Positions 3,551 to 42,271 are shown, counted from the stretch's first letter. The stretch is DNA of 64,000 nt from an uncultured Gammaproteobacteria bacterium (GCA_964394405.1 CAYMVY010000001.1:345236-409235); one strand, 5' to 3'. Translations and numbers: made by a program. The notes: generated by a model not told the origin, from the sequence alone.

Positions 3551-6500
3551 ATGGTACCTCTCTTTCGCCGCCAACCTCTAAAATCGACTGAGCGCACATT
3601 TTTTACCAAACTAAGAGACGCAATCACTGCGCCTGATTTGATTGAGGTACAAAAAAATTCGTATGAGTGGTTTTTCAAAGAAGGACTTCGCGAATTGTTT
3701 GATGAACTGTCTCCAATCACTGATTTCACAGGTCGCGATCTTGAATTGTATTTTGAAGACTACTATCTCGACGAGCCAAAATTTGATGAAGTTACCTGCC
3801 GCAACAAAAATATCACCTACGAAGCACCGCTTCGTGTGAATGTTCGAATGACAAATAAAAGAACCGGAAAATCAGACAAACAGGAAATTTATTTGGGTGA
3901 TGTTCCTCTGATGACTGCTCGCGGTACGTTCATGGTGAATGGAATTGAGCGTGTAATTGTTTCTCAGCTTATTCGAAGCGCGGGAGCATTTTTCACTGCA
4001 GAGATGGTGCGCGGACGACGATTTTACGGAGCAAAGATTATTCCAAACCGCGGTGCGTGGATAGAAATCGAAACTGATCAGAATAATGTGCTCTGGATCA
4101 AGGTTGATCGCAAAAGAAAAGTTGCTGCAACCTCGCTCCTACGGGCATTTGGGTATGCAGACGATGAAAAAATTAAAGCAGCATTTGCTGATGTGAATAC
4201 ACATCCCAATATTGACTATGTGGATGCAACACTCAAAAAAGATACCGCAAAATCTGAAGAGGATGGATTGATCGAAGTGTATCGCCGTATTCGTCCGGGG
4301 GACTTGGCAACTGCAGAAAATGCACGTAGTCTGATTCATGCCATGTTTTTCAATTTTGATCGCTATGATCTCGGCAAAGTGGGTGTCTATAAATTTGATA
4401 CTAAATTTGATTTGGGTTTGACTGAAGAAGCGTATGATTCAAAAGAAGAGCGTGTATTGTCTCCCGAAAAATTATTAAAAGTTCTCAAAGAAGTTATCCG
4501 ATTAAATGTAACCCAGGAAGAAGCAGATGATATTGATCATTTGGGTAATCGTCGTGTACGTGGAGTGGGAGAACTCGTTCAGAATAGATTTAGAATCGGT
4601 CTCGCTCGTATGGAGCGCATTGCAAAAGATCGTATGAGTACGATGGAAGTAGATACGATTGCTCCAAACAAATTAATCAACGCTCGACCAGTGATTTCAG
4701 TGATTCGTGAATTTTTCATGAGTTCACAGCTCTCACAATTCATGGACCAGGTAAACCCGCTTGCTGAACTTGAACACAAACGCCGTGTATCAGCATTGGG
4801 TCCTGGTGGATTGTCTCGTGACCGAGCAGGATTCGAAGTACGTGACGTACACCGTACTCACTATGGACGTATTTGTCCGATTGCAACTCCTGAAGGACCA
4901 AATATCGGTTTGGTAGGACACTTGTCAACGTACGCAAAAGTCAATCGTTTTGGATTCCTTGAAACTCCCTATAGAAAAGTATTGCGCGAAGTTCCTAATG
5001 AAGCAAAATTTACCGAAGGTGAATATTCTCTCGAAGAAATCAAAGGAATGGTAGGCGCAGGAGAAGAGATTACTGCAGCAATTGCCAAGAAATTAGAATC
5101 AGACAAAAAGTTATCTGTAATCAAAGTGAAGCCTCGAGTAACTGATGAAATCGTATACCTGAACTCATTCCAGGAAGAACGATCGATTACTGCATCGGCT
5201 ACTACACGGATGGACGATCGAGGATATTTCCTTGATGAAAAAACTCCTGCTCGTGTGCATGGTGAAGCGCAGGTAACTGAAGTTGCAAGTATCCAGTATA
5301 TTGATGTTGCATCAAACCAGATTTTATCTCTCGCAACAAGTATTATTCCATTTTTGGAACACGATGATGCGACTCGCGCCTTGATGGGAACAAACATGCA
5401 GAGACAGGCAGTGCCTTGTATCAAGCCAGAACCACCACTGGTCGGAACCGGAGTTGAGAAGGCTGCTGCAGAAAATAGTGGGTACGTAGCAAAAGCTCCT
5501 GCTGATGGTGAAATTACCTATGTTGATGGACACCGAATCGAACTCACTGATAAAAAAGGGAAAGTGTATACCTGGGATCTGGGTAAATTCCTCCGCTCAA
5601 ACGCATCAAGCTGTATCAACCAAAAACCAACCGTTACTTTGGGTCAAAAAGTAAAGAAAGGACATCCAATGTCTGATGGACCAAGTATTAAAGATGGTGA
5701 ATTGGCATTGGGACAAAATGTATTGGTAGCCTACATGGTGTGGGATGGATTCAATTATGAAGATGCGGTTATCATCTCTGATCGTCTCGTAAAGGATGAT
5801 CGATACACCTCGATCCATATCGAAGATTATACAATTGATGTTCGTGAAACCAAGCTTGGAGAAGAAGTGATTACCAATGATATTCCGAATGTCAGTGAAG
5901 AAAAATTACGAAATCTTGATTCAGAAGGTATTGTTCGCATTGGTGCTGAAGTTCATTCAGGAGATATTTTGGTCGGAAAAATTACGCCAAAAGGAGAAAC
6001 TGAATTAACCCCTGAAGAGCGATTGCTCCGGGCAATTTTCGGAGAAAAAGCGCGCGATGTTCGTGATTCATCACTCTATCTCGAGCATGGTGAGCAGGGG
6101 AAAGTAATTGATGTAAAAATCTTCTCAGCAGAAGCTGGAGACAAATTACAGCCAGGTGTGATCAAACAAGTTCAGGTCACGGTTGCTGATATGCGAAAAA
6201 TCCAGGTAGGAGACAAAATGGCAGGTCGCCATGGAAACAAAGGTGTCATCTCACGTGTGGTCCCAGCTGAAGATATGCCATTCCTAGAAGATGGAACTCC
6301 GGTAGATATTATCCTCTCTCCATTGGGTGTTATTTCACGTATGAACTTGGGTCAATTGCTCGAGACCCATCTTGGTCTTGCGGCAAATGCGCTTGGGTAC
6401 AAAGCAGCAACACCAGTATTAAATGGAATTTTGGAAAGTCAAATTGAAGAAGAACTCAAAAAAGCAGGATTTCCAACTGATGGAAAATTGCAGCTCTATG

Positions 6501-10000: not shown

Positions 10001-10953
10001 GTCTTCCTCGAGTTGAAGAACTCTTTGAAGCACGAACTCCAAAGCGAAAAGCGCTTCTTTCAGAAGTCGCAGGAACAGTTGAAATTGAGGATGCTGATGG
10101 AAAGGTAGTCATGGGTCCGACCGGACGAAAGATTTTTGAAGGTCGCCGTGGACAAAAAATCGTGAAAATTCATCATGATGGCATTGATGAGATTGTATTC
10201 GATGTTCATGGAGAAGATGATTTGAAAGTGGCTGACGGACAAAAAGTAGCTGAAGGGGACGTAATGATTGTGCGTGGATCATCAGGCGAAGAAATCAAAG
10301 CAGAGTTCAATGGAAAAGTAACCGTTGACGGTATGCGTCTGCGCTATGTCTATGATGGTAAAACCACCAAAGAATATATTGTTCCGCTTGGATTTAAACT
10401 CTGGGTCAAAAATGGGGACATGGTTGCCAAGGGAGATCAGCTAACTGAAGGTGCTGTTGATCTAAAAGAACTTTTTGAACTCAAAGGTCAGGATGCGGTA
10501 AAACGGTATGTCTTGGGAGAAATTCAGGAAATCTATGCATCTCAGGGTCAGCGCTTGAACGATAAACATATTGAAATTATTATCAAGCAGATGTTCTCTC
10601 GTGTATTCATCGAAGACGCAGGGGATACTGAACTTATCCCAGGTGAAGTAGTCGAGCGTTCACAGCTCATGCTTGCAAATGCAGAAGCTGAGAAAAACAA
10701 ACAAAAGGTTGCTCATGGTCGCGATATGCTCATGGGTATCAGTAAGATTTCTCTTACCACTCAGAGCTTCCTCTCAAGTGCGTCATTCCAGGAAACATCT
10801 CGCGTATTGGTAAATGCTGCGATCACTGGAAAGATGGATCATCTCGAAGGATTAAAAGAAAACGTCATTATCGGTCGCTTGATTCCAGCCGGAACCGGTA
10901 CCAAGGATCAGGCAATCGAAGTGGTACAAGAAAAAGAAGAAGTGGTGAGTTAA
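7048..10953 (+). CDS. rpoC: DNA-directed RNA polymerase subunit beta'
   Basis: 1301 aa. Zn-binding CYCGKYKKIRYKGIVCDKCG near the N-terminus, the catalytic NADFDGDQMAVH motif, and trigger-loop / C-terminal conserved blocks. Confidence 0.95.
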   Translation: MARDTLHTMNFDALRLKIASPEVIKKWSYGEVYKPETINYRTQKPEKGGLFAEEIFGPTKDWECYCGKYKKIRYKGIVCDKCGVEVTHSLVRRERMGHIELAAPVSHIWFLRTIPSRIGLVLDLSIQSLEKVMYFASFIITHVDEAEKAATVEALKKEYKSKKKQLETDAARKLENAEKSAKKEIESERDQKLEVLEEDFKTAEAELKDILTMNIISEAYYQELSIRYGHLFEAGIGAGAIRGLLERLNIPETVARLETEIGKSKGAKRERLIRRVKLLKSLDKNDIRPEWMIMTSIPVIPPDLRPMVALDGGRFATSDLNDLYRRVINRNNRLRRLVELNAPEVICRNEKRMLQEAVDALIDNSARASKTVRASTGQKRQLRSLADILKGKQGRFRQNLLGKRVDYSGRSVIVVGPTLKIDECGIPKIIALELFKPFIMAEIIKRELAHNVRSASRFIESNAPEVWDILEELTKKTRVLLNRAPTLHRLGIQAFKPRLVEGKAIKLHPLVCPAFNADFDGDQMAVHLPLSEQAKWEAENLMASEKNLLKPATGSPVITPQQDIALGCYYLTKYDESDTAKVTKFYANVTEAKYAYKTRKITLKERISVRLGEAEMAKFPEGTKSLVETSMGRILFNEILPDKLMYYNEAITKKYLSNIIQLLLELYGQETTAHHLDKIKELGFKYVTKSGYSLGKDDFPAIHAKHGLLLAADKQVELVYEQFNEGLLTDSERHAKILEIWAEAKENLLSNSKDVLNKDGSVFAMIDSGARGSWAQLGQVIAMKGLVASPSGDIIELPVKGNFKEGFDVLEFFISSHGVRKGLSDTALRTANAGYLTRRLVDVAQDVVVRADDCGDTVGEMFTREQSEQMGEKLSERVLGRFVLAAVKIDGETIVKKGEVINEHAARLIESKAVDNIHVRSVLQCHIAKGICAKCYGYDLGNRRVVEKGVAVGVIAAQSIGEPGTQLTMRTFHLGGVAGGDITQGLPRVEELFEARTPKRKALLSEVAGTVEIEDADGKVVMGPTGRKIFEGRRGQKIVKIHHDGIDEIVFDVHGEDDLKVADGQKVAEGDVMIVRGSSGEEIKAEFNGKVTVDGMRLRYVYDGKTTKEYIVPLGFKLWVKNGDMVAKGDQLTEGAVDLKELFELKGQDAVKRYVLGEIQEIYASQGQRLNDKHIEIIIKQMFSRVFIEDAGDTELIPGEVVERSQLMLANAEAEKNKQKVAHGRDMLMGISKISLTTQSFLSSASFQETSRVLVNAAITGKMDHLEGLKENVIIGRLIPAGTGTKDQAIEVVQEKEEVVS

Positions 10954-10971
10954 GACAGGTCATGAAAAACA

Positions 10972-11004
10972 AAAACCCCGCCTTTACGAAAGGTGGGGTT
11001 TTTG
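10972..11004. terminator. bidirectional rho-independent terminator between convergent rpoC and ppa
   Basis: aaaaCCCCGCCtttacgaaaGGTGGGGttttt: a GC stem flanked by an A-run and a T-run, so it can terminate both strands. Confidence 0.55.
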
Positions 11005-11020
11005 ATATTACACTAGATTT

Positions 11021-11563
11021 TTATTTTGCGAAGGTCTGGTGGAAGAGCTCCATACTGTCTTTCACTACTTGAATTGCTTTTTGCTTGTCTCCAAATCCAG
11101 TCACCTCGACAACTTTTTTCTTTTCAAGTTTTTTGTACTCTTCGAAGAATTGTTTGATTTCATCGAGGGTATGTTGAGGAATGTCTGAGAGATCATTGAT
11201 ATGCTTCACATTGGGATCTTTGGTTGCGACTGCAATAATCTTATCATCAGCCTCTCCTCCATCTACCATACCCATAACTCCGACTACACGCACTTCGACG
11301 AGACAGAGTGGGGGAAGGACTTCGGAGCAGAGTACGAGTACATCGAGATCGTCTCCATCTTCACAATACGTCTGTGGGATCAGTCCATAGTTTTGTGGAT
11401 AGTGGACTGCAGAATAGAGTACGCGATCGAGCTTAACTAAATTACTACTTTTATCAATTTCAAATTTTGCTTTACTTCCGCGGGGGATTTCAATGATTGC
11501 TTGTACGACTTCAGGAGCTCCTTCTCCGATTGATACTGAATGCCAGGGATTTTTACTTTCCAT
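11021..11563 (-). CDS. ppa: inorganic pyrophosphatase (family I)
   Basis: 180 aa with the classic family I PPase blocks: EIPRGSKAKFEID, YPQNYGLIPQT, DGDDLDVLVL and VVGVMGMVDGGEADDKIIAV. Confidence 0.92.
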   Translation of the reverse strand: MESKNPWHSVSIGEGAPEVVQAIIEIPRGSKAKFEIDKSSNLVKLDRVLYSAVHYPQNYGLIPQTYCEDGDDLDVLVLCSEVLPPLCLVEVRVVGVMGMVDGGEADDKIIAVATKDPNVKHINDLSDIPQHTLDEIKQFFEEYKKLEKKKVVEVTGFGDKQKAIQVVKDSMELFHQTFAK

Positions 11564-11638
11564 AGAATTAATTATTTTGAATATTCATAGCTAGTATCCT
11601 AGCTTAATGATCTGGTTTTGTAAAGGTTTTTAAAAGAG

Positions 11639-11667
11639 TTGATTTTTTCAATATTTTTGTTAAAATC
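11639..11667 (+). promoter_or_regulatory. candidate sigma-70-type promoter for yebC (TTGATT - 16 nt - TAAAAT)
   Basis: -35-like ttgatt at 11639-11644 and -10-like taaaat at 11661-11666, about 30 nt upstream of the yebC ATG. Confidence 0.3.
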
Positions 11668-11695
11668 CTACATATTAAAGACTAAGACTATAGAT

Positions 11696-12427
11696 ATGTC
11701 AGGTCATTCTAAGTGGCATAATATCCAAGGCAAGAAGGGGAAAGCTGATAAAGCTCGAGCAAACGCGTTTACCAAAGTTTCAAAGGCAATTACGGTTGCA
11801 GCACAGAATGGTGGTGGAGATCCTGCCATGAATTTTTCATTGCGTCTCGCAATTGATAAAGCAAAGGAAGTAAACATGCCGAAAGACAATATTGATCGCG
11901 CAGTGAAGAAAGGAACTGGAGAATTAAAAGATGGGGCAGTATTGCAGGAGGTGGTATACGAAGGATATGGACCAGGCGGAGTTGCAATGCTTATTGAATC
12001 AGTCACGGATAATACGAATCGAGCGCTTACTGAAATCAAAAACGCATTTACCAAAATTGGCGGGTCACTCGGGAGCAAGGGCGCAGTTGCGTGGCAATTT
12101 GAGTACAAAGCAGTACTTCGTATTAGTGCTGAGAAAAAACAAGAGATAAAAAACTGGGAAGAACTCGAACTTGCGCTCATGGATGCAGGAGTAGATGATA
12201 TTCGGGAAAGTGAGGATGGTGTCGAGCTTATTGGTCCCAAAGAAAAATTTCAGGCAATGAATGAAGTCCTTCATAAAGCAGGGATTAATCCTGATAGTGC
12301 AGGGCTTGAATGGATGGCAAAAGAGACAATGGAGTTGTCAGAGGAACAGTCACAGGTGCTTACTGAACTGGTTGATGCACTCTATGACCTCGATGATGTA
12401 AAAGAGGTATATACCACTGCTCGCTAA
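11696..12427 (+). CDS. yebC: YebC/PmpR family DNA-binding transcriptional regulator
   Basis: The N-terminus MSGHSKWHNIQGKKGKADKARANAFTK is the signature start of the YebC family. Length is about 243 aa. The track ORF starts 57 nt earlier at an upstream in-frame ATG. Confidence 0.88.
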   Translation: MSGHSKWHNIQGKKGKADKARANAFTKVSKAITVAAQNGGGDPAMNFSLRLAIDKAKEVNMPKDNIDRAVKKGTGELKDGAVLQEVVYEGYGPGGVAMLIESVTDNTNRALTEIKNAFTKIGGSLGSKGAVAWQFEYKAVLRISAEKKQEIKNWEELELALMDAGVDDIRESEDGVELIGPKEKFQAMNEVLHKAGINPDSAGLEWMAKETMELSEEQSQVLTELVDALYDLDDVKEVYTTAR

Positions 12428-12437
12428 TATCAAAACA

Positions 12438-12465
12438 AAAACAGCCTAGTTATAAGCTGTTTTTG
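12438..12465 (+). terminator. rho-independent terminator of yebC, also the left direct repeat of the G+C-rich insert
   Basis: aaaacagc-ctagttataa-gctgttttt hairpin plus a T-run, immediately after the yebC stop. Confidence 0.5.
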
Positions 12466-12945
12466 GTTGGGGTCGTCGCAGGGTTGCTGCGACGACCAGG
12501 ATTGTCACGCGGCCTCGTTTTCGGGCACGCTGATCCTCCAGATATCTTCGGAGGAGCAGGGGTTCCCGTCGGAGTCGAGCGCACAGGCGAAGATCGTGGC
12601 CGACTTCCAACGCTTCAGGACCGCAGTTTTGAGAGACTGAAGGCAGATCCAGCTCAAGGCCGGTCGCTCGATCCTGATCCGCTGGATCTCGTAGCTCTCC
12701 CAGCTGGCGTAGACCTTGTCGTTGACGTCGACCACGGAATCCGTGTGGACCGAGATGAACTCGATCGGACCATCCATGCCGATGATAAGTACGATCGGAC
12801 CCTTCTCGTCCTCATTCCATTGGATTGGAGCGAGAACGCGTTCGGAACGCCCGATACGCACTTCAGCACCTTCTGTGGTTGAACACAGGTGACACATACA
12901 CCCCCCTTATACTATCTACGGCTAGAGGAATTCCAGCCTGGCTAT
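12466..12945. mobile_element. G+C-rich insertion of about 480 bp, bounded by imperfect direct repeats ACAGCCTAGTTATAAGCTG / ACAGCCTAGTAAAAGCTG
   Basis: Abrupt compositional shift: the insert is clearly G+C-rich while the flanks are AT-rich. The direct repeats lie at 12441-12459 and 12946-12963. ORFs are open on both strands, as expected for high-GC DNA. Confidence 0.4.
12505..12897 (-). CDS. hypothetical protein (130 aa) encoded within the G+C-rich insert
   Basis: The minus-strand ORF MCHLCSTTEGAEVRIGRSERVLAPIQWNEDEKGPIVLIIGMDG... has protein-like composition. The overlapping plus-strand ORF (12463..12882) is R/G/P/D-rich and typical of high-GC antisense artefacts. I recognise no domain. Confidence 0.35.
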   Translation of the reverse strand: MCHLCSTTEGAEVRIGRSERVLAPIQWNEDEKGPIVLIIGMDGPIEFISVHTDSVVDVNDKVYASWESYEIQRIRIERPALSWICLQSLKTAVLKRWKSATIFACALDSDGNPCSSEDIWRISVPENEAA

Positions 12946-13076
12946 ACAGCCTAGTAAAAGCTGCACAGCCTGACCGGGATACATAAGAAAAGTAGTACAC
13001 TGTAGAGGATTTCAGTGTTTTTGTCAATACTATGCCCAATAGCAGTTTACATGCTAAAATAAGATCGATACTTGGT

Positions 13077-13592
13077 ATGCCTATCTCCAAACCACAAAAA
13101 ATTACTCGTATTCTCGGTATTGATCCAGGCTTTGGCCGTGTCGGTTTTGGAATTATTGATGTCGCAGGTGATAGATTTCGAGTAGTTGAGTATGGATGTA
13201 TTGAGACTGATACCAAACGGACATTTGTCGAGCGACTGGAAGACATTTCAGATGAGCTGATTACAATTATTCGGAAGCACAAGCCCAATTGTGGGGCAGT
13301 GGAAGAGTTGTTTTTCTACAAAAATGTCACGACTGCTATGAAAGTGAGTCAGGCTAGAGGTGTCATTCTTCTGACCCTGAGAAAAGCCAGACTCCCGATT
13401 CATGAATACACCCCACTACAAGTAAAGCAGAGCCTGACCGGGTATGGAAATGCAGCCAAATCTCAGCTTGAGACTATGGTCAAAGTAATTTTGGGCTTGA
13501 AGAAAAAAATCACTTCAGATGACGCAGCTGATGCCCTTGCTATTGCGCTTACCTGCGCAGCTTCGCGAAAGATGGAGGAACTTACAGGCTAA
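13077..13592 (+). CDS. ruvC: crossover junction endodeoxyribonuclease RuvC
   Basis: The ILGIDPGFGRVGFGIID N-terminal catalytic Asp motif and an RNase H-like fold pattern. An upstream in-frame ATG at 13032 would add 15 aa. Confidence 0.88.
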   Translation: MPISKPQKITRILGIDPGFGRVGFGIIDVAGDRFRVVEYGCIETDTKRTFVERLEDISDELITIIRKHKPNCGAVEELFFYKNVTTAMKVSQARGVILLTLRKARLPIHEYTPLQVKQSLTGYGNAAKSQLETMVKVILGLKKKITSDDAADALAIALTCAASRKMEELTG

Positions 13593-13613
13593 GTGTGCTA
13601 TAATAGATTTGAT

Positions 13614-13740
13614 AAACTCAAAACTCAAATGTCAAAACGCAAAACTATAACTCAAAACTCGAATCTTTCGAGACCTCTGTTGAAATAGGTTTTAAGATTT
13701 AAGTTGATAGTTTTGAACTTTGAGTTTTAAGTTTTGAGAT
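13614..13740. repeat. AT-rich palindromic intergenic repeat (AAACTCAAAAC family), copy 2
   Basis: aaactcaaaactcaaatgtcaaaacgcaaaactataactcaaaactcgaatc ... ttaagatttaagttgatagttttgaactttgagttttaagttttgagat. The arms are approximate reverse complements. Confidence 0.6.
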
Positions 13741-39532: not shown

Positions 39533-39978
39533 TGTTTCGTATTACTTGAGATGATCGTCTTATCCTCCGATTCGGAGAGTAGGAAGGAAAGTCCGAACTT
39601 CCCCCGACGTTACGTCGGGGAAAAAGGTAGTGGGTAACACCCACCCCCCGATCCGTGAGGTATTGGGGCGGGAAAGTGCCACAGAGACTATACTACCCTG
39701 CACCAGAAACGGTACAGGGGAAACGTGAAAAGTGTGCTGATGTGTTGATCGGTTCAGCAATTGCGCTTGATCAATGCTACGGTACTAGTCCTATTGTGAA
39801 ATAGGATGTTGGTAAACCCTACCTGAAGAAAGAGCAGCGTTTCCCGACTCAGTCGGGATTCGAAAAGTTAGCTCGTTTTGATCTCACTGGCAACAGTGGG
39901 GCTAGAGAAATGATCATTACTCCCGACGTAACGTCGGGGGATACAGAATTCGGCTTATGAGAGTAGTGCGAAACAAAA
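39533..39978 (+). ncRNA. rnpB: RNase P RNA (bacterial type), with extra hairpin insertions
   Basis: Universal P4 segments GGAAGGAAAGTCCGAAC and ACAGAATTCGGCTTAT, GGTAGTGGGTAACACCCACC (the GGUAAC P5-P7 region), GGGAAACG and GGTAAACCCTACC. The P1 pairing is tgtttcg...cgaaaca. It is followed by the atctgtacc-agaaa-tggtgcagattttttt terminator at 39981-40011. Confidence 0.75.
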
Positions 39979-40997: not shown

Positions 40998-42017
40998 TCA
41001 TGGCTCATCGTGGGGAGTATACACCCGCTGCAGGTGTTCGATCGCTTTGACTTGGAGTTGTCGTGTGCGTTCGCGGGTCAGATTAAGGAGTGCACCCATC
41101 TCATCGAGAGTCTTGGGACGTTCTCCTTTCAGTCCAAAGCGATGAATGAGGATATAGCGACTGCGGACAGTGAGTCCAGGGTGATCGAGGAGACTCTCGA
41201 CGAATCTCCGTGCATCCAGTTTGTCGAGCAGGACAGTGGGAGGCAGCAGTCCCTCATACCGTTCGGAAATCTCGATAGTATTCCCGAGAAGCATGGTGGT
41301 ATCATCAGGTCTGGATCGAGTAGATTCGAGGCTCTCGATCGAACCGCGGTAGTTCGGATGGTGGATCACTGCTTCGAGTTCTGAATACCGTCTCTTCGAC
41401 ATTCTGAGTGCCTGTCGGATTTCTTCAGAGGAGGCTTCTCGACCGAGCTCTTTCTCGAGCTCTGCTTTGGTGTCCTGGTAGTGTTTGACCATCCGTCGAA
41501 GCTTGATCGGGAATTTCACTGTTCCCAGCCGGAGCAGTCGATGGAAGATCTTTTGACGGAACCAGAACCAGACGTAGCTACCGAATCCAGAACCGCGCGT
41601 TTCGTCATATCCATGGACTGCGTCGATCATCCCTTCGAACATGTCCTGTATGATGTCAGCTTCGTCAAGCATTGGATCCAGTCTGCCGTTGCCGAACATA
41701 TTCAGATAGGAAGTACGATTAAGGAAATCGTGGACCAGTCCTTTGTTCTTCCGGATGAATCCATCCAGGTCTGAAGTGCCATCAGGCATGGTGAGTTCGT
41801 TGGAAGTACAACTCGTGGCGAAGCCGAGGGTGAACAGGCGCCGCCGCACGAATTCATAGACTCCATGAGGAAACCCTTCTTCGAGGATCTCCATCTTGGG
41901 TCGTGCGAGGAACTCTCCGACCGTCGTGATTTTGAGCTTCTTCAGACGGTCAATGATTGATTGGCGGAACTTGAGTTTGTCGAGACGCGTGTGGAGTGAT
42001 TTTTTCTTCTGCTTCAT
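40998..42017 (-). CDS. RNA polymerase sigma-70 family factor (RpoD/SigA-like)
   Basis: A region 2 promoter-recognition block (YVWFWFRQKIFHRL), region 3 and a region 4.2 HTH (TLDEMGALLNLTRERTRQLQVKAIEHL). 339 aa. Confidence 0.82.
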   Translation of the reverse strand: MKQKKKSLHTRLDKLKFRQSIIDRLKKLKITTVGEFLARPKMEILEEGFPHGVYEFVRRRLFTLGFATSCTSNELTMPDGTSDLDGFIRKNKGLVHDFLNRTSYLNMFGNGRLDPMLDEADIIQDMFEGMIDAVHGYDETRGSGFGSYVWFWFRQKIFHRLLRLGTVKFPIKLRRMVKHYQDTKAELEKELGREASSEEIRQALRMSKRRYSELEAVIHHPNYRGSIESLESTRSRPDDTTMLLGNTIEISERYEGLLPPTVLLDKLDARRFVESLLDHPGLTVRSRYILIHRFGLKGERPKTLDEMGALLNLTRERTRQLQVKAIEHLQRVYTPHDEP

Positions 42018-42181: not shown

Positions 42182-42189
42182 TTTTGTTG

Positions 42190-42271
42190 TGCTCAGGAGA
42201 GGACTCGAACCTCCATGCCTTTCGGCGCTACCACCTCAAGGTAGTGCGTCTACCAATTTCGCCACCTGAGC
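42190..42271 (-). tRNA. tRNA-Leu (anticodon GAG), type II with long variable arm
   Basis: The minus-strand sequence gctcaggtggcgaaattggtagacgcactaccttgaggtggtagcgccgaaaggcatggaggttcgagtcctctcctgagca folds as a cloverleaf. The anticodon loop ttGAGgt gives anticodon GAG. The T-loop is ttcgagt. CCA is not encoded. Confidence 0.85.

Follow-up and report, generated by a model that had tools for sequence, protein, structure and literature searches.

The spacer between yebC and ruvC in the DNA analyzed here (64,000 nt, referred to below as the window) probably holds a horizontally acquired, self-contained transcription unit with a single gene, which has the anatomy of a moron, occupies a hypervariable slot in a Magasanikbacteria-like genome of the CPR, and moved by homologous recombination after a first illegitimate placement. 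The host is called Magasanikbacteria-like on the basis of its genes and its nearest database relatives. The sequence-only reading of the same DNA had proposed an insertion of foreign DNA next to yebC, and this proposal is borne out by composition and by empty sites in relatives. On these two grounds, the insert is a genuine insertion of foreign composition. The horizontal origin of its content, termed cassette A, is suggested by composition together with presence and absence among relatives; a search for the donor was negative.

Small orphan genes that were acquired horizontally and lie in an intergenic hotspot are nothing unusual in themselves. What makes the present case moderately interesting is a conserved frame in which unrelated G+C-rich cargo has been swapped. 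The genomes of CPR/Patescibacteria are tiny and streamlined, and the gain of accessory genes in them is poorly documented at nucleotide resolution. The yebC-ruvC locus offers a clean natural series (empty, A, B, C, D) in at least six species-level lineages with a conserved promoter/terminator frame. The series lends itself to studying the entry of single orphan genes into CPR genomes and their movement from one to another, as well as the reason why the G+C content of the cargo exceeds that of the hosts.

Composition and anatomy of the inserted unit

The G+C content is 57.0% across 12460-12945, compared with 42.5% for the whole window, and it drops to 33% (12421-12459) and 35% (12981-13096) in the flanking pieces. 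The G+C-rich insert of about 480 bp described earlier is therefore real as a compositional feature. The sole stretch of the window with a higher G+C content is the IS110-like island at 54.0-55.6 kb, and the sequence of the insert occurs in a single copy in the window. An assembly artefact had also been considered. A 2785-bp Logan contig (run SRR12404947) is an exact substring of the window (10860-13644) and crosses both junctions. Because both junctions were assembled independently into an identical contig by a second assembler, the insert is not an assembly artefact.

Read along the minus strand, the unit consists of a promoter, a leader of about 95 nt, a strong Shine-Dalgarno sequence, a 130-aa ORF, a G+C-rich hairpin, and an intrinsic terminator (Table 1). 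The -35 element (TTGAC) abuts the ruvC start and is kept in all occupied relatives. As predicted from the consensus matches, the unit is transcribed against both yebC and ruvC.

Table 1. Features of the yebC-ruvC slot in the window, the IS110-like ORF, and the cassettes found in related genomes
Feature	Position or locus	Strand	Basis or remark
yebC (YebC/PmpR family), left flank	11696-12427	+	Pfam PF20772, PF01709
Whole replaced tract, occupied slot state	12421-13096	.	blastn of L095 against the window
Terminator, A+T-rich 13-bp hairpin and T-run	12436-12465	-	terminator scan, minus strand only
Left direct repeat copy, ACAGCCTAGTTATAAGCTG	12441-12459	+	within the terminator hairpin
Antisense shadow ORF, 139 aa, overlapping the cargo gene	12463-12882	+	G+C by codon position 0.76/0.46/0.54
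Perfect 11-bp G+C-rich hairpin, GGTCGTCGCAG/CTGCGACGACC, just past the ORF stop	12471-12497	.	cassette A only
Cargo gene, 130-aa orphan protein, MCHLCSTTEGAEV...	12505-12897	-	ORF list, codon composition, Shine-Dalgarno sequence
Strong Shine-Dalgarno sequence, AAGGGGGG, 3 nt before ATG	12901-12908	-	read from sequence
Right direct repeat copy, ACAGCCTAG-TAAAAGCTG	12946-12963	+	within the cassette gene's 5' leader, where the G+C-rich DNA ends on the right
16-nt ruvC copy (15/16 match to ruvC codons, 13427-13442)	12963-12978	+	directly abuts the right repeat
Predicted sigma-70-type promoter, TTGACA-17-TACAGT, into the cassette gene	12999-13027	-	promoter scan, 10/12 consensus matches
ruvC, right flank	13032-13592	+	Pfam PF02075
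IS110-like ORF, 469 aa	54061-55470	-	PF02371, GC3 0.85
Cassette B	L007/L008, L010	-	ORF of 101/99 aa
Cassette C	L009	-	ORF of 91 aa
Cassette D	L011	-	ORF of 53 aa, hydrophobic

The G+C content of the 130-aa ORF at the three codon positions is 0.53/0.45/0.75. Host ORFs of at least 200 aa have GC3 values of 0.31-0.42 with a median of 0.36, and, judged by codon position, the pattern of the cargo ORF is the usual one for a gene from a G+C-rich source. The 139-aa ORF on the plus strand has the mirror image of this codon pattern and is thus an antisense shadow of the 130-aa ORF. Codon-position composition and the Shine-Dalgarno sequence make the minus-strand ORF a plausible gene, in support of what had been suggested for it.

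The predicted protein is acidic and soluble-looking, with an N-terminal CxxC. The Pfam, PHROGs, NCBIfam, and PADLOC HMM libraries gave no family match or chance-level matches only. A word-indexed search of 5.8 billion proteins yielded no homologue, and an exhaustive phmmer search of 1.84 billion representatives returned just two short-stretch matches in long repetitive proteins. A sequence search of the PDB found no relative, and a search of viral contigs found no match. With profile, protein, and PDB searches all negative, the earlier lack of a family assignment holds. A single-sequence AlphaFold (AF2) model of the protein was unusable (pLDDT 39), and Rfam gave no match in the insert or in the slots of relatives. 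The protein presumably confers an accessory, strain-specific trait. A free-standing homing endonuclease gene was considered and rejected: no HNH, GIY-YIG, or LAGLIDADG-type domain was found in the ORF with Pfam/NCBIfam at E<=1, where one chance-level match appeared.

An exact-protein look-up has no record of the minus-strand ORF, because gene callers chose the 139-aa shadow on the plus strand. In L009, one of the relatives described below, the public gene calls are empty in the occupied spacer (1872-2361). G+C-rich cargo in A+T-rich genomes is systematically mis-called, and protein-database searches undercount such genes. The locus shows this concretely, with an antisense shadow called in the window and nothing in L009; such cargo is under-represented in protein databases.

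The yebC-ruvC slot in related genomes

Loci of relatives were gathered by look-up of near-identical YebC and RuvC proteins. In the closest relative (L095/L096), the flanks are 93-98% identical to the window and the spacer is empty, with a length of 27 nt; in L095, it consists of the yebC terminator ACAACTGCAGATAATGCAGTTGT followed by a T-run. The slot is also empty in L003-L006, where the spacer measures 47 nt. The outgroups L012-L015 (58-70% YebC identity) have A+T-rich spacers of 64-209 nt in which any trace of the insert is absent. Empty sites of the kind that the sequence-only reading had suggested searching for therefore exist, in L095/L096 and in L003-L006. The empty state appears to be the ancestral one; a loss of the cassette from L095 through import of an empty allele is equally compatible with the tract data.

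Comparison with L095 also defines the extent of the event. The last 330 nt of yebC are 98-100% identical between the two genomes. In blastn, homology between L095 and the window ends at 12420 and resumes at 13097, and 676 nt in the window stand against 75 nt (the native terminator and gene ends) in L095. The last 7 nt of yebC (12421-12427) lie inside the replaced tract, as do approximately the first dozen codons of ruvC, whose 5' end is included up to 13096. Consequently, the G+C-rich core of about 480 bp stands as originally described, but the event as a whole spans 676 nt (12421-13096) and cuts into the ends of both genes.

At the right edge of the tract, ruvC offers two in-frame ATGCC starts, the first at 13032 (the NCBI choice, giving 186 aa) and the second 45 nt further on at 13077 (the Logan choice, giving 171 aa). 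Each of them resembles the ATGCC... start found in relatives with an occupied slot. The second start encodes the common MPISKPQK-type N-terminus, and the first has the position of the relatives' start, a few nucleotides from TTGAC. The presence of two starts suggests a small duplication at this edge.

Four further species-level lineages have an occupied spacer, with about 80% yebC DNA identity to the window. Their cargo ORFs, assigned to cassettes B, C, and D, can be aligned neither with each other nor with the 130-aa ORF of the window. Their G+C content is 50-58%, compared with 40-43% for their hosts, and their GC3 is 0.64-0.75. The frame around these different genes is shared. Every occupied spacer contains a minus-strand promoter with a TTGAC -35 element 6-10 nt from the ruvC start and a 17-nt spacer, and a strong Shine-Dalgarno sequence corresponding to that of cassette A is present in each of the four other cassette copies. 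The common end on the yebC side reads AAAACAAAAACAGCCTA.T.ATAAGCTG.TTTTG..TGGG and is preceded, in minus-strand order, by a G+C-rich stem-loop. In types B, C, and D, this stem-loop is a common one, different from and longer than the 11-bp hairpin found at the same place in cassette A.

The state of the slot (empty, A, B, C, or D) differs from one close relative to another. Of the six lineages compared, L009 and L011 are the most similar pair (91% yebC DNA identity), yet they carry different cargo in identical frames; the two sequences diverge immediately past the promoter and become similar again near the stop codon and stem-loop. The copies of cassette B in L007 and L010 are 74-80% identical and have diverged as much as the flanking genes, which indicates that cassettes are inherited vertically once acquired. 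Cassette B belongs to a small-protein family of 15 members, found in unrelated contexts in hosts with 38-56% G+C. Its structure was predicted with confidence (pLDDT 86); no significant fold match was found in the PDB, and the model gave no functional clue. A homologue search with cassette C found none. The small family of cassette B and the orphan status of cassette C point to a cargo pool of small, poorly sampled accessory genes.

The relatives also clarify the hairpin at 12436-12465. The sequence-only reading took it for the yebC terminator, in which the insert would be lodged, but it is the minus-strand terminator of the inserted unit. It is conserved in L007/L008, L009, L010, and L011. In these four relatives, a T/C difference within the hairpin gives G-U pairs in the RNA of the minus strand but not in that of the plus strand, and the hairpin folds more stably on the minus strand by approximately 4-12 kcal/mol. 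The shared pattern, AAAACAAAAACAGCCTA.T.ATAAGCTG.TTTT, forms part of the different inserts of the sister species. L007, L009, and L011 keep the true yebC terminator (ACAACTGCAGATAATGCAGTTGT) upstream of it. Because these sister species have their own yebC terminator in addition to the shared hairpin, the hairpin belongs to the inserted unit. The native yebC terminator has been lost in both the window and L010. In the window, the hairpin now probably terminates yebC as well, as its sole remaining terminator.

The hairpin module occurs once in the window, and among about 95 loci searched with an nhmmer profile it occurs only at the yebC-ruvC slot. An exact-pattern scan found it in two genomes of a 185,579-species collection, each time at this slot, and the same type of scan found it absent from metagenome and viral collections.

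Route of insertion and comparison with known systems

In the first step of the proposed route, an illegitimate event, perhaps a template switch, would have brought the G+C-rich core into the slot and left two short local copies at the right junction, namely the hairpin core and the ruvC 16-mer. The occupied slot would then have passed from species to species through homologous recombination within yebC and ruvC on either side, for example after DNA uptake. The alignment of the window with L095 is a mosaic of blocks that are 97-100% identical and blocks that are 78-90% identical, and the first ~200 nt of ruvC past the junction are 89-90% identical. The features of the window that resemble L010 are the 5' end of ruvC, the yebC stop region (..AR*), and ATATCAAA(A)C ahead of the hairpin. 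Exchange by homologous recombination within the two neighbouring genes would account both for a replaced tract that clips the two gene ends and for a ruvC 5' end and yebC stop region that are L010-like rather than like the nearest relative. Taken from one close relative and short diverged tracts, these data point to transfer by this route.

The right junction bears on the first step. The direct repeats of about 19 bp reported at the edges are confirmed: the two copies align at 17/19 positions with one gap, differ by an indel and a mismatch, and bracket the G+C-rich core exactly. Their local-alignment score was reached by 1/5000 shuffles of the right-hand non-coding stretch, and the 9-mer ACAGCCTAG is unique in the window. 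The score of the adjoining 16-nt ruvC copy was reached by 2/2000 shuffles; this patch matches ruvC of the window and of L095, not the ruvC of other species. Both patches begin with ACAGCCT. By their arrangement, the repeat and the adjoining ruvC copy look more like a junction scar than like a target duplication. Two adjacent local copies joined at a microhomology look like the filler of an illegitimate or template-switch junction, not like the signature of a transposase or integrase.

The concept of the moron reportedly goes back to Juhala/Hendrix. The term applies to phage genomes, where it denotes a single ORF with its own promoter and terminator, located between genes that are adjacent in relatives, of foreign composition and with an unknown mechanism of acquisition (PMC4378225). 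Similarly, the cassette ORF has its own predicted sigma-70-type promoter (13027-12999) and factor-independent terminator (12465-12436), lies between genes separated by 27-47 nt in L095/L096 and L003-L006, and differs from its surroundings in G+C content (57% vs 42.5%) and GC3 (0.75 vs a median of 0.36). Unlike a phage moron, it resides in a CPR chromosome with rpoC, ppa, yebC, ruvC, gap, pgk, and eno as neighbours, and searches of PHROGs and viral contigs gave no match that would indicate a phage or prophage setting. A further difference is that the -35 element and terminator are common to the different cargo of the sister species, so that the frame is conserved and the cargo swapped. The slot also resembles recombination hotspots at core genes in its unrelated alternative cargo, its empty and occupied alleles in close relatives, and the signs of homologous exchange in its flanks. 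It differs from them in its very small scale (one ORF of 53-130 aa) and in that all cargo is richer in G+C than the host. No defence or mobility gene was found in the cargo with PADLOC and Pfam. A tRNA-targeted island was rejected, the nearest tRNA lying at 42.2 kb with no integrase present.

An unlikely alternative, suggested in the sequence-only reading, is a site-specific or transpositional insertion into the hairpin. The recombinase or transposase would be encoded elsewhere, for example by the IS110-like gene at 54-55 kb, the insert would be a 486-bp circular or excised element, and the 19-nt repeats would be a duplicated target or att core. The elements IS110/IS1111 target hairpins. An IS110-family gene in the window is consistent with this alternative, as are a repeat well above chance and its exact bracketing of the G+C-rich DNA. 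The variable part of cassettes B, C, and D also has almost the same limits in each, immediately past the promoter on one side and immediately before the base of the shared G+C-rich stem-loop on the other. Such coinciding limits are odd for random illegitimate events and leave room for a site-specific mechanism. However, the far ends of B, C, and D lack a second copy of the hairpin core, so the repeat is not a general signature of target duplication or of an att core. For a target duplication, the repeat is also long and imperfect. Both of its copies fall within the tract in which the window and its empty nearest relative differ, and this tract extends beyond each of them. Target duplication also leaves the ruvC copy directly after the right repeat unexplained.

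The insert was also compared with hairpin-targeting insertion sequences (IS110/IS1111, IS200/IS605) and their non-autonomous derivatives. As in these elements, the foreign DNA abuts a hairpin and has no terminal inverted repeats, and an IS110-family gene lies 42 kb away. Unlike them, the insert has no transposase and no conserved ends at both sides, is present in a single copy, and carries a cargo gene in place of the transposition module. No recombinase was found in or near the insert. A test for an IS or MITE found no end-to-end inverted repeat (two local hairpins only), no transposase domain, and no further copy of the insert in the window; an IS/MITE was rejected for want of terminal inverted repeats, transposase, and multiple copies.

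A bolder and quite unlikely possibility is that the yebC-ruvC spacer of this CPR genus serves as a dedicated gene-capture slot. A resident promoter and a structured terminator/stem-loop module would repeatedly receive unrelated, promoterless G+C-rich ORFs from a common, unsampled pool, site-specifically and with no integron integrase, attC boxes, or transposase. Such a slot would, if real, amount to a new and minimal system of cassette exchange in ultra-small bacteria.

Capture of an integron-like kind, in which a resident promoter and recombination site take up promoterless ORF cassettes that each end in an attC-like G+C-rich stem-loop, is very unlikely. The resemblance lies in a conserved, resident A+T-rich promoter/terminator, in variable content at a fixed site with an imperfect stem-loop after each G+C-rich ORF, and in small, mostly orphan cargo as in chromosomal integrons. 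Against it, the R''/R' core boxes of attC (RYYYAAC ... GTTRRRY, sought as a pair 50-150 nt apart) were not found on either strand of the five cassettes. The slot is flanked by rpoC, ppa, yebC, ruvC, gap, and pgk with no adjacent integrase, and no integron integrase was found among the flanking ORFs of the 64-kb window. Integron cassettes occur in arrays with repeated stem-loops; here, each slot holds at most one cassette, the stem-loop module occurs in a single copy, and the stem-loop of cassette A is unrelated to that of B, C, and D.

It is highly improbable that the insert is ancestral core DNA, that is, a gene old in the lineage and deleted in the relatives that lack the cassette. Occupied slots can be old, since cassette B has persisted for approximately as long as the L007/L010 split. 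However, the GC3 of 0.75 lies far outside the host range of 0.31-0.42, the spacers of the outgroups at 58-70% YebC identity are short and A+T-rich, the nearest relative has an empty slot with the native terminator that is missing from the window, and cassette A was found in no other genome. A chimera or contamination, with a piece of a G+C-rich organism joined into a CPR contig, is hardly credible: the abrupt change of composition and an insert with no homologue would fit it, but the identical 2785-bp contig of an independent assembler covers both junctions, analogous G+C-rich inserts with the same terminator module occupy the same spot in four other species from different samples, and a host-type promoter, Shine-Dalgarno sequence, and terminator are correctly positioned in the unit. 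These two readings, ancestral core DNA and an assembly artefact, are as good as excluded.

Other features of the window and of related loci

In L010, a near-perfect palindrome of about 115 nt (GCTGTCATTCCGAGCGACCGAGTC...GACTCGGGTGCCTCGCTCGGAATGACA; 4772-4885) stands in place of the native yebC terminator, immediately upstream of the hairpin module common to the occupied slots, and it may be a separate small mobile element. The spacer between ppa and yebC is also variable, with ORFs of 464 aa in L095 (677-2071), 161 aa in L007 (3397-3882), and 91 aa in L009 (730-1005). No Pfam family was found for any of them, and the ppa-yebC spacer of the window has no ORF. The ppa-yebC-ruvC-gap neighbourhood as a whole is insertion-prone. 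In a different genome, L093 (GCA_038206135.1), a homologue of cassette B lies within a run of small ORFs (3873-5513). Repeats of about 55 nt precede several of these ORFs (3873-3927/4448-4502 and 4884-4940/5457-5513, 75-77% identical) and contain TTGACA-like boxes, so that an array of small gene units in this genome is possible.

The sequence-only reading had raised the possibility that the insert and the IS110-like island share a donor. The two have no sequence in common and are alike only in being G+C-rich (GC3 0.75 vs 0.85), so a common donor is neither supported nor excluded. The IS110-like ORF is embedded among repeat units of about 170 nt in 52900-56200, for example at 53610-53780, 55590-55760, and 55975-56130. 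Each unit comprises a GTGACCAGTA...TACTGGTC hairpin and a CCTTCTCTCT...AGAGAGAAGG terminator-like hairpin. Rfam gave no match for these units, which could be small RNA genes or element ends.

A third compositional outlier of the window is a 339-aa sigma-70-like ORF on the minus strand (40998-42017), located beside a tRNA-Leu (42189-42271). Its GC3 is 0.585 compared with the host median of 0.36, and PADLOC returned an MzaA-like match (E 1.3e-13). This ORF may also have been acquired. One minor G+C peak is explained by a bacterial class A RNase P RNA at 39539-39973 (Rfam RF00010, 153 bits).
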